From: Octopus vulgaris
Lineage: Eukaryota
Assembly: GCA_951406725.2 (NCBI GenBank)
Contig: OX597815.1
Location: 122,636,001 to 122,700,000 of the forward strand
Direction: 5' to 3'
Length of the DNA stretch: 64,000 nucleotides
The stretch's first letter is position 1, and each line of letters begins with the position of its first letter. Under the pieces are notes generated by a model. It did not search any database, was not told the DNA's origin, and saw only the letters and a list, made by a program, of their open reading frames with translations. The position numbers and the translations under genes were made by a program. Shown here one piece after another: positions 3,501 to 30,500 of this stretch.

Positions 3501-6500
3501 ACCCCTATCTTGCTCAGAACATTGACCTCCTGGAATCTGTCCAGAGACGTGCAACCAAACACATACCCTCCATCAGACACCTACCATATTCTGAGCGCCT
3601 TGTTTCCCTGGGCATGGATTCACTGAAGCTCCGGCGTCTGGTGACGGACTTGGTGAACACCCACAAAGTTATCAACCACCTCACCAACAACAACACTGAA
3701 CACCTTTTTGATCTCCATGTGTCTAACACACGTGGACATGCCTACAAAGTCAGAAAACAACACAGCTCCCATGACTTTCGGAAACATTTTTTCACGCTCA
3801 GAGTTGCTGAAGCATGGAATAAACTGCCTGTGTCAGTTGTTGACTGCCATGACACTGCATCCTTTAAGGCCCTCATGCTTTCCGAAATCCGCCGAAACTA
3901 CACCTGATTATATATACACTTTAGATGAGTTGTAGTGCACCTGAGCACTGTACACAATTATTATTATTATTATTATTATTATTATTATTATTATTATATA
4001 CAGAAAATATTCTCATACATTTGTGTGCATACAAATGCACACACATATCATACAGTTTCAGATAAGGTAAGGTAAAAATATGAAGGAAATACCATAAGGT
4101 AAAGGTTGTCCATCCCTTAACCATTCCACTTTCATTGTGGGATCATTAATAGGAGTCAACAGACATTCCAAATGTGTGCGGTCATATTCAGCAACTTCAA
4201 CATTTTTCAGTTGAGTTCTGAAAACAGGCCTCCTTTTCTTGCTTGTATTGTATATAATTTCAGTTGGATGTACACAGGCGCGGCGTATGTGAGATTCTTG
4301 CTTCATTTTCTGTAATTGTCTGAAATTTTAAAAAGGAAAACAAATATAGTCAACCTTTCTATTCCAACATAGGTAAACTAAGACACATCAAACTTAATAA
4401 GATTAACATTATGCAGAATATTAACCTAGTCTTTCAAGATGCATTAGTGGCCTATTGGATAAGAATATTATTACCATTTGTTCATACATAGAAGTTTCTA
4501 GCTTGTTCAAATCTACTCAAGTAATTTAAACACATCTAGGATCATAATCTTGATTAAAGATCAGGCCAATGGAAATGCAGTGTAAATTTAGATATCAGAA
4601 AAATTTTCAAATTTAACAATGAAGTTAATAGTACAAAAACTTTTAATTTTATTAATATTTCCTCTTAGATATTTAGACATATTCATAAACTTTAAAATAT
4701 TTTTAAAAATTACTTACATCTCAGCTTCCATCTTGATAAGGTCATCATGTGTGACTCTGAATTTTTTTAAAAAGTTCATATATTAATAATTAGAAACAAT
4801 GACAATAATTAATTTGAGAAAATTGATAAATAGATTATGTAAAGTATGCATTGCATATTTTAAATATGTAGAATTCCAAATATATGAATTCAGGTTCAGT
4901 CAGGAGAAAAATGTCAAACTTTTTCTTTGTAGTTAGAATGTATTCTTGGACATGCTTTAATCAGTCAAACTAAAAAACTTGTATTCAACATTTACTGAGT
5001 GTCTAACATTAGGAATAGTTCCTTTCAAGTGTAAAAACAGCACCTCTATAAAATTAATTAAATTATTATTATTATTATTATTATTATTATTATTAAGGCA
5101 GCAAACTGGCAGAATCATTAGCATGCTGGGCAAAATGCTTAGTGGCATCTCATCCATCTTTATCTTCTCATTTCAAATTCTGCCAGGGTCAACTTTGCTT
5201 TTCATCCTTTCGGGGTCGATAAATTAAGTACGAGTGAAACACTGGGGTCGATGTAATCGACTAGTTCCCTTCCCCAAAATTTCAGGCCTTGTGCCTTTAG
5301 TAGAAAGGATTATTATTATTTCTCTTTATCACAGGTTTTGTTGGAGCTCCTGGAGTCTTACATGCATAGTGGGCTTGCTGCCTGCAGACTATGGTATCAT
5401 GCTATCCACTCTTTTCAGCTATCTAATACTTTTATGATTATTCTGGCCGTGCCAAGGAGGCAAACATTTCGTAACAGTTCTACTGGGCAATCTGTTCCAG
5501 TTTCCATTATATTTCCCTTGATGTCTTCTGATGCTGTTCTCAAGAACCCAACAATAATTGGCACTATCTTCATCTTCTTCATTTTCCATAGTCAGGCTAT
5601 TTCATACTTAAGAGGGTTGTATTTATCTATCTTTTCGCCTTCCTTCTTGACTATTCGTGGGTCAAAGGGGCATGCAACATCAACTATATAACCTATGTGG
5701 CACATCTTGTCCACCACCACTAGGTCTGGTCTGTTATGCTCTAGCAACTGATCTGTTTGAATTGGGAAATCCCAGAGGATTTTGCTAATTTCTAACGCCG
5801 CCACTCTCTGCTGTTTGTGTTCATACCATGTCTTGCCTCTCTCTAGCCCCCACTTTTCGCACAGTTTCCAATGTAGCACTTTCACTACCTGATCATGTCA
5901 CCACAACTTGTAGTGGTTTAGGCAAGTCTAGGGCATTCGTTGGTGATATGGGCAATGGTTTCATCCACCCTATTGCAGATGCAGCATAGCAGAGACACTT
6001 GCTCATTCCTAAGATTGACCCTCCAGTTTATGGCCACATCTATATCTAGTAATGTGCATAGCTATTCACTCACAAGTGAGTATGACTTAATAATTGTTTC
6101 TAACTGTGAGCAGACAGAGACACCTCCTCTGCCCTTCCACCCTTGACCCAGTGCTCTTGGTCTCTTTTTTCAGTGTTCCTTTCATCAGCCAACCCCACCT
6201 ATTTTTTCCGGTAACTTCTGTTGTGGCTGCATGGAATTGATTGTGTAGTCCCTTCATGCGTAATTCTTCTTCATGTCCTTTTTGCACATACTTTGTATTT
6301 TTTTATTTTTCTCTGCTTTGAATGTACCATTGTTCCTAACTGTCACTAACAAGGTTTCTATTATTATCATCATCATCATCATGATCATCATCATCATAGT
6401 GAGGACACATGGAGTAGTGGTTAGAGTGTTGCATTCTTGATCATGAGATCATGGTTTCAATTCCTAGACTGGGTAGTACATTGTGGCCTTGAACAAAACA

Positions 6501-27500: not shown

Positions 27501-30500
27501 ATTTTAAACTGTTGTTACAAAAGCTGATTAATAATTAAATAAGCTTATGAACAAAACTTTAAAGCTTTTCTCATTAAACTTCTATAAAAAAAACTTTCAA
27601 ACACTAGAAAGTATTAGTACAAAGTTAAAATTAGTTTTAAGTATGTTTTAAACAGTTAGCATTTTTATATCAATGAACTATTTCAGATGGAAACAGTTGA
27701 TAAAATTACTTTAGCATACAACTTCTAAGTTCATCTTTATGTCAAATAACAAAAGTTTTCTAAATGTTCAGGTTTAGAAATATAACAACTTTCATAAAAT
27801 TTTAGTAAATATCAGTGAAATAAGACAGTATATGAAAAAACTAAAAAATTAATATATTTTGTTAATTTATTTGAGATGTTTCTATTGTCCTAAAAATTAA
27901 AGATTTTAAAATGTTCTTACATACTTTGTAAAAGATTTAATTTAATTAGAATAGAATTAATATTATGTGTGTCACACACACTTAGTTAGAGTATACTATG
28001 ACACTAAATTAATGAGAGTTAGAGTCATCAGTCTTTAGATATTGTAAATTCAATGTAAATTAGATATTTCTTTTACTTCACCATAGAATGAGTATTTGCC
28101 ATAGTCTGCTACATAAACAAATTATATTTATCAATTTTCAGATTTCATCCAAATTTCTGTCAGTCTCTACAATTTGATGCCAACATATTCAAAATTCCTC
28201 ACATCTGAAAGTGCACATAAACTATATCTAAATCAGTGTAATTTTACACCCACGTTTCCATGCCTGCGTGGGTTAGATAAGTCAGTTCTTATTTGGAGTT
28301 ACTAAGTCCACCACCACTACCACTACTCCACTAATGGACCATGGACCATGTCTCGCTCGTAAATTTTATAAATCAGTATTAAATATTAAAACATTAAGCA
28401 AAAACATTATTGTAGGAAAAGAATTCCATTACAGTTTTAAAGAATGTCATGGAATAAAGAATTTCACAATATTTGAAAAGCACTTATTGAATCATCAATC
28501 TGTAACTAAAATTATATAGTAACAGGATTCACATTTCAAATTTCTTGTTAATTTAACTATTTAATAGTGAAATCAATGATAACTGAATTATGTTAAGTGG
28601 CTGCATGTAGATATGAAAACATATGAGTTAGTAGCCACATTTAAATTTCAATTGAATATTGTTCAATTAACATATCTATTCTAATTTATTAAATTCTCAT
28701 ATAAGAAAATTTTACATTGTTTTTGTATCTTGATGTCACTTCATGTGCTGAAACAAATCTTGTATCTTGGGTGGGTCATTATGCCAATAATAATAATAAT
28801 AATAATAATAATTTCTACTAAAGTCACAAGGCCTGAAATTTTGGTGAGGGGACTAGTCAGTTAAATTGACCCCAGTGTTTTACCAGTACTTAATTTATCA
28901 AACCCGAAAGGAGGAAAGGCAAAGTTGACTTTGATGGAATTTGAACTCAGAACATAAATGCCCCTAAGCATTATGCCTGGAATACTAACGATTCTGCCAG
29001 CTTGCTGCCTTAATAATAATAATAAACATATGCATTGGTTCAATATCACTTCTCTATTCTTAGTCAATCAGTTTAATATCTAACCAATACATTAAACAAA
29101 TGATTGGTTGGTTAGATATTTAACCCATTGATTAACAATAAAGAAGTAATATTGAACCAGCATGCATGTTTATCGTTATTGGCATAATGATTTTCCCAAG
29201 GTGCAACAAAATTTTGTTAACCTACTAACTTATATCTATGTCAAACTAAAGATTACTGTTATTTATTCAGAATAAATAACACCAAACTTCAGATTACTTT
29301 TCATACACCTTGATTTTTTTAAATATCATTTTGTCTATGAATTTATCTACACCTAACTCCTTTTTCTGTGGCATAACCTATTTGTTGTACAAAACCATCA
29401 TCTTGTTGCTCATACTAATAAAAATAGTGGGGAAGAATCCATTATATTTCTTAATGTAATCAAGACAATACTAAATTTACAAGGAAAAGGACAGAACCAA
29501 TGGGATATTGATAATTGTTAATAGAGTATACATATTTAAGTCTATAATTTAAACAGCCTAACAATAATTTAGATACATAAGCCCAATAATAATTTCAAGA
29601 ATCTGCATCACATATTTATCTGTTATGGATTCTTATATGAAGAGAAAGGAGGAAAAAATAAGAAATCCTATTTTCCTCTTTAATCAATTACTTCTCTTTT
29701 TTTTTTTGCAGCTACAAAAAATGTGTAGAATTTGAAAGAATGTGTTTGGAAAATTTTAAATACGAAATTTAAATTACTTTCTATGCAATTAGTGCAAGTA
29801 ATTAAAAAGTGTTTCATTGCCAAACAAATCCTATTTATATTGTATACTTTAACTGTTAGTTTATAATGTGGTAAAACAAAAAGAGTAACAAACATATGAA
29901 CTGAAATAGTTAAACCAACACAAAAAACAACAGCTTAAACTAAAACAAAAACAAAACTGTGAAGCATAAAAACAAGAAGAAATAAGATAAAATAAAAGCA
30001 TGAAGAAATAAAATTCAAGGAAACAAAAACATTTAAAATCTATTTAATAAGAATTAGCTGATTAAAAAAGATTACTAAATAAAATGACTCGGATGGAACT
30101 TCTTTCTGAATTAAAAAAGTGTGTTCATGTAAAAACTCTTATAAATGAAAATCTTTCTTTAGTGGTTGGAATTTTAAATAGAACAGAAGTATCAGAGGAT
30201 TTGTTTGTACTGTTTTAATCAATATATGTGCTATTATATTTTGTTCTCTGAATAGAATTGTAATTTTATTTTTCTTTGATGATTCCATGAGTCATTTTAT
30301 TTACTCAGAACAAATAACACCAAACAAAATATTTTGTTTAAAACTGAACACAACATTCCCAACTAAAGATTCAGTTCGAACCTTCTGAGAGGATCTTCTC
30401 TCAAAAGTCGCAGAGTTGCACTGTCATGTTCTGTTGCATAAGATATTTGTTGAACAGGACCAATTGGTTGAATTTCATATTTGCTAAAGGGAAAAATATT

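Follow-up and report, generated by a model that had tools for sequence, protein, structure and literature searches.

The gene considered here lies on the minus strand of a 64-kb stretch of the 2.8-Gb Octopus vulgaris genome (G000:C2:122636001-122700000; this whole stretch is hereafter called the window) and, by its sequence, is a member of the titin/sallimus (I-connectin) family. Our comparison drew on parts of PMC12198301, PMC13322953, PMC7039190, PMC9648829, PMC3207145 and PMC1781342. As described in the relevant sections of PMC12198301, PMC7039190 and PMC13322953, sallimus (sls) is likewise one giant gene that runs from spectrin repeats through Ig domains to PEVK-like stretches, and it resembles the gene described here in giving short and long isoforms (zormin, kettin and long Sls) from one locus. 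The kettin of flies comprises 35 Igs with 25 spacers that are conserved (PMC3207145). As in kettin region 1, four Igs come before the kettin-type Ig in the window, but the gene there differs in having one kettin-type Ig with its spacer and a preceding linker that is 336 residues longer. The order of three Igs, a linker, one kettin-type Ig and the next Ig is shared with vertebrate titin, as is a linker spacing of 102 residues once the seven exons analysed below are removed, but those exons lie at the Z-disc/I-band edge and not in the PEVK spring, and the PEVK-like ones are unskipped among the joints listed. Titin has a short form, Novex-3, made via an exon that introduces a stop (PMC9648829, in the section consulted), whereas the short form predicted here would come from reading through an internal exon and would stop at an earlier point among the Igs. 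The connectitin arrangement (SESTD1-CCDC141-titin; CG15822-zormin-sls) similarly has spectrin-repeat exons leading into the Ig series, and an Octopus sinensis sequence was used in the trees of that paper, but the linker, its exons and their splicing are not described in the parts of PMC12198301 and its supplement that were searched. Drosophila projectin has an alternatively spliced N-terminal PEVK-like stretch between Ig blocks (PMC13322953, in part), although it belongs to another gene class (twitchin/projectin) and the variable exons of the octopus gene are not the PEVK-like ones. Cephalopod muscle titin is little described: a search of the open literature turned up no account of titin exons or their splicing in cephalopods, and since subscription papers and database isoform annotations were outside that search, the exons may be annotated already.

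In the window, spectrin-repeat exons are followed by 13 Ig domains (counted from the exon table, in agreement with the initial annotation), a linker, one kettin-type Ig and a titin-like continuation with giant frames rich in Glu, Val and Lys (E/V/K-rich). Seven exons, named here by their length in nucleotides, occupy the linker; X1 to X15 denote sequencing runs.

30382..30483, minus strand: E102, cassette exon of 34 residues with the first copy of an 18-residue motif (contig joints, motif search).
24974..25330, minus strand: E357, proline-rich, 119 residues; spliced as an internal exon, or probably opening a composite last exon (contig joints, exon table).
24403..24501, minus strand: E99, 33 residues, second motif copy and paralogue of E102; no skipping seen among the joints listed.
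17921..17977, minus strand: E57, 19 residues, Pro/Lys-rich; no skipping seen among the joints listed.
11498..11731, minus strand: E234, 78 residues, Pro/Ala/Lys-rich; no skipping seen among the joints listed.
10279..10398, minus strand: E120, cassette exon of 40 residues, not PEVK-like; kept in X1 and X14 but skipped in X5 and X15.
4718..4756, minus strand: E39, micro-exon of 13 residues; included wherever a transcript reaches it.

We consider it probable that these exons constitute a 336-residue insert, likely gained in one phase-2 intron, and that the transcripts seen use only three switches, i.e. E102, E120 and, at E357, a choice between splicing and a likely polyadenylation (poly(A)) site. 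Such behaviour is likely to be ordinary titin-type isoform switching and not the 128-way spring code that the initial annotation had proposed. The exons themselves, as first described, withstood scrutiny: their sizes, strand and common 2-2 phase are borne out by coordinates and open frames, all seven are stop-free (1008 nt, or 336 residues, together), and each is spliced at GT-AG sites in transcript contigs and thus genuine. The AG ends of six and the GTT donors of five were also found in the sequence as quoted. GTT donors are enriched in the array compared with the other exons of the gene (5/7 versus 3/28; Fisher p=0.003), whereas AG ends (6/7 versus 15/28, p=0.20) reflect just the splice consensus and are not distinctive. 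The control table of 28 other exons is partial, some six more being visible in the gaps between its entries; its last two donors are GTA, and the counts are unaffected by a coordinate offset of a few bases. The array had been placed between Ig 13 and the first kettin-type Ig, which holds for its position, with a 70-nt linker exon in front of the seven, and its neighbours had been described as mostly asymmetric with short introns; the asymmetry stands (19 of the 28 other exons), although short introns also occur inside the array (4/8, 398-1099 nt).

The case for an insert comes from the spacing between the Ig domains that flank the array, the following features marking its two sides.

32688..33496, minus strand: Ig 13, the upstream anchor, in two exons (33496-33337 and 32818-32688) from the exon table; it matches the corresponding Ig in acorn-worm, vertebrate and kettin-type proteins.
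31391..31460, minus strand: 70-nt linker exon, phase 1-2, first half of the ancestral linker (joints to E102 and E357).
4093..4319, minus strand: the latter half of the ancestral linker, together with the first half of the only kettin-type Ig (transcript joints, Pfam scan, exon table).
479..1011, minus strand: remainder of the kettin-type Ig with its one kettin-like spacer, in two exons (about 1011-868 and 566-479; signature and Pfam scans).

With the kettin-type exon as query, 150 proteins were retrieved; about 159 proteins entered the comparison, 12 of them with both the Ig 13 and the kettin-type Ig anchors. Counterparts of Ig 11-13 and of the kettin-type Ig follow one another in the same order in the titins of acorn worm, bird, bat and bichir. 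A one-to-one match of the Igs to those of the fly protein is our assumption, the tests having been made against other kettin-type proteins. The anchor spacing in the window is 438 residues with all seven exons included and 102 residues with all removed, and exactly 102 residues separate the anchors in 6/12 proteins (acorn worm, bird, bat, two bichir and one further); it is 104-106 residues in three others and 242-275 residues in the last three, where the pattern missed a divergent first Ig. The linker after the Ig 13 equivalent is short in a flatworm protein, too. Since the spacing without the seven exons equals that of vertebrate and acorn-worm titin, the exons can be regarded as an insert at one phase-2 position, the donor of the 70-nt linker exon (31460-31391) opening the phase-2 intron series.

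Part of the insert points to local duplication, because E102 and E99 are paralogous and a decayed third copy of their motif lies in the array. The three copies of the 18-residue motif score 50-66 bits (BLOSUM), compared with 30 for the next best match in 264 kb, and 0/1000 shuffles reached such scores.

29353..29414, minus strand: third motif copy, 62 nt, phase 0-2, one base short of frame (motif search; no joint listed); likely a pseudo-exon or poison exon.

This copy is not supported as a working exon, as its inclusion would shift the frame and none was found among the joints listed. Paralogy of E357 and E234 was rejected, their score being reached by 129/1000 shuffles. On comparative sequence grounds, a single ancestral phase-2 intron is the likely place where all seven exons were acquired, some of them through duplication, and selection for frame would explain their 2-2 phase. 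An exon newly arisen in such an intron would have to be 2-2 to survive, so the shared phase is no evidence of skipping and, more generally, runs of same-phase exons should not be taken as combinatorial codes.

Splicing was followed in assembled contigs from 6/24 sequencing runs (five studies, three organism labels, tissues not given), the stretch 11480-31475 in X1, X5, X9 and X6 and the stretch 4050-18100 in X1, X5, X14 and X15. No run is on record as RNA, but the presence of spliced joints implies that the runs contain it. The joints leading from the 70-nt linker exon through E102, E357, E99 and E57 to E234 are present in 4/4 runs. E102 is included in all four and skipped, through a joint from the linker exon to E357, in X9 and X6; depths for X1/X5/X9/X6 are 331/2805/226/52 for linker exon to E102, 382/2940/226/52 for E102 to E357 and 0/0/63/124 for the skipping joint, giving inclusion by joint depth of about 0.78 in X9 and 0.30 in X6. 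Within each run the joint depths from E357 through E99 and E57 to E234 are equal (31/2940/47/6.6 for the first two joints, 31/3053/47/6.6 for the third). Further along, with depths for X1/X5/X14/X15, E234 joins E120 (31/0/277/0) or, with E120 skipped, E39 (0/2454/0/176), and E39 joins the next Ig exon in three of the four runs (31/2454/0/176); in X14 the loose end after E120 resembles E39. X9 probably includes E120 also, its contig overhang past E234 being like that of X1, with the same length beyond. Inclusion and skipping joints were both found for E102 and E120 only, and no skip of E357, E99, E57, E234 or E39 occurs among the joints listed in the six runs; the claim of alternative splicing holds for the two cassettes and is not supported for the other five exons. 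A loose end in X5, with the interior of E234 joined to E357 sequence, was taken as a short-repeat artefact. In organism C, E234 is 36 nt shorter, 12 residues of its Pro/Ala/Lys repeat being absent without a change of frame (window 11545-11582).

The third switch was missing from the initial account of the array.

24788..24973, minus strand: read-through tail of E357 encoding 27 residues, with a stop at 24894-24892, AATAAA at 24814-24809 and the contig end at 24788 (X1 contig, depth 160.5).

The X1 contig continues from E357 into the following 472-nt intron and ends 21 nt past the AATAAA, a signal that 3% of positions would have by chance; a GU/U-rich stretch comes next. Depth-bin arithmetic, which reproduces the reported values, implies a read-through contig about 59 deep in X6, beyond those listed, and none in X5 or X9. 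The depth entering E357 and that going on to E99 are 382/31 in X1, 176/6.6 in X6, 289/47 in X9 and 2940/2940 in X5; as contig means, these are weak measures of level. The stop, the AATAAA, the GU-rich element and one contig end all fit intronic polyadenylation, no poly(A) reads being seen, and the site is likely an intronic poly(A) site yielding an early transcript end. We envisage that the weak E357 donor may compete with this site, use of which would produce a short protein of Ig domains, probably with spectrin repeats as well, that lacks the long elastic part. Such a protein would end after Ig 13, presumably further along than zormin. The locus would then have three testable switches and probably a short isoform of the kind known as Novex-3 in titin and zormin in sallimus.

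Several points weigh against this interpretation. Contigs, the source of all the splicing evidence, lose rare forms and reveal neither the ends of RNAs nor their levels; the runs are 6 of 24, lack tissue labels and owe their 'RNA' status to a tool's guess. The negative results on skipping hold among the joints listed, 146 and 61 more existing in the two stretches, and as neither stretch spans both sides, skips from E357 or E99 to E120 or E39 would be visible only as loose ends. The read-through contig is direct in one of four runs, X6 being implied by arithmetic only and X9 having none. The compared proteins are single annotated isoforms; no full-length mollusc titin was among them, and it is within this comparison that the insert appears lineage-specific. 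Finally, none of the exons yielded a binding partner or a fold.

Of the other explanations, the one that survives best concerns the third switch alone, i.e. that read-through of E357 is unspliced nascent RNA and not a polyadenylated short isoform. The runs are indeed rich in intronic sequence, with intron contigs present, and contig ends differ from RNA ends; nascent RNA nevertheless seems an unlikely source of a contig at depth 160 when neighbouring intron contigs have depths of 10-29, and when the depth falls to 6 or less within the same intron in X1, right after the AATAAA and GU-rich site.

The combinatorial spring module of the initial annotation, in which most exons would be skipped independently in each muscle type to tune a PEVK-like length, is in our view quite improbable. 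On paper any subset can indeed be skipped without loss of frame, computed translations of 128/128 combinations staying open; the concentration of GTT donors and the confirmation of two cassettes that differ between samples also accord with it, and the few samples examined, like the loss of rare forms from contigs, leave it some room. Five of the seven exons, however, are without a skip among the joints listed in the six runs, joint depths are equal, and unbranched contigs of 5040 nt (X1), 5367 nt (X9) and 14,820 nt (X15) run across the unskipped block. The description of a PEVK-like linker is apt for E357, E57 and E234 (50-65% P+E+V+K) but not for E102, E99, E120 and E39 (24-41%), and the proline-rich exons are the unskipped ones; differential skipping of PEVK exons was not seen for E357, E57 or E234 among the joints listed, though rare forms are invisible in contigs. 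The two cassettes, with 9% (E102) and 8% (E120) proline, are not PEVK-like and change the length by 34 and 40 residues, compared with 15,808 residues in the eight E/V/K-rich frames downstream (514-5416 residues each), of which the whole insert amounts to about 2%; tuning of stiffness by the array is therefore unlikely. On the reading we prefer, that of an insert with three switches, all long forms would keep, close to the edge of the Z-disc, a constant Pro-rich spacer some 260 residues long, and the cassettes would add or remove short binding or regulatory segments with little effect on stiffness.

A near-neutral growth of the linker, by duplication and exonisation in a tolerant region with skipping and read-through as functionless leakage of weak donors, would account for the decayed motif copy, for the 36-nt difference of E234 in organism C and for the position of all three variable events at GTT donors, but is hard to credit given that the E120 choice is nearly all-or-none per sample (in for X1, out for X5 and X15) with inclusion common to organism C, that E102 ranges from about 0.3 to being the only form seen, and that depth does not drop after E357 in the deepest run but does so by about tenfold or more elsewhere.

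Four giant frames downstream are far stronger candidates for cassettes of spring length. These are paralogous E/V/K-rich frames with the same start, on the minus strand (loci L010-L016), located by frame scan.

G000:C2:122553195-122545141, minus strand: giant frame, 2685 residues.
G000:C2:122536340-122520093, minus strand: giant frame, 5416 residues.
G000:C2:122512786-122507543, minus strand: giant frame, 1748 residues.
G000:C2:122499276-122494636, minus strand: giant frame, 1547 residues.

A phase-1 acceptor candidate was found in 4/4 of them and a matching phase-1 donor candidate in 3/4. Within the window, more proline-rich linkers lie between Ig 8 and Ig 11 (42962-42532, 41349-40959 and 38635-38517, minus strand); their exons are asymmetric and so not singly skippable.

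Searches with the individual linker peptides gave little. Pfam returned no family for the six peptides scanned (E57 and E39 were too short), none of 5641 candidate relatives of E357 among longer proteins passed, and one of three candidates for E99 matched, being a 98%-identical unspliced frame. E120 had nothing in the ESM Atlas or PDB. Its apparent resemblance to a Zasp/ALP motif (DUF4749, ZM or AM) was not upheld: there was no Pfam match, E120 was not among five PF15936 matches, and nothing scored above shuffles in 200 kb of Zasp-like loci. The ZM-motif (PF15936) search did give four matches elsewhere (L041-L044, on G000 C24, C7 twice and C3), three over the cut-off, marking Zasp-like genes.

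Downstream of the array, the 'kettin repeats' of the initial annotation come down to one kettin-type Ig. A single kettin-type signature was present in 364 kb around the locus, a genome-wide search with this gene's own kettin-type exon gave at least one match, and one with a kettin fragment had this exon as the best match, with at least five others that are weak; neither search found an array. The tandem series that characterises kettin, some 30 units of Ig plus spacer bearing spacer motifs I and II, was thus not found. Scanning metagenomes with the kettin-type exon as query yielded 332 pattern matches, of which none was confirmed. A lone kettin-type Ig whose linker has a fixed length is shared with deuterostome titin, and the kettin array would then be a lineage expansion. 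We offer, tentatively and as a set of proposals that is doubtful when taken together, that in this animal titin either lost the kettin array, which binds actin, or did without it from the start, and grew its own module at the Z-disc edge, that the duplicated motif of E102 and E99 is a new binding motif present in as many copies as splicing allows, and that the poly(A) switch after E357 converts the gene from giant muscle titin to a short spectrin-Ig scaffold, dominant in non-muscle tissue. The spectrin-repeat exons upstream run in frame direction into the Ig series, and Pfam Spectrin gave weak matches, below cut-off, on two of the three scanned.

The window also contains frames resembling mobile elements. 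A reverse-transcriptase-like frame at 2234-3904 (plus strand), with one interrupting stop near 2921, lies in the intron splitting the kettin-type Ig; we take it to be a LINE. Two similar copies of a GIY-YIG-like frame (61176-62064, both strands), presumably Penelope-type fragments, have as their neighbour a TA microsatellite that is long (about 59.6-60.7 kb).

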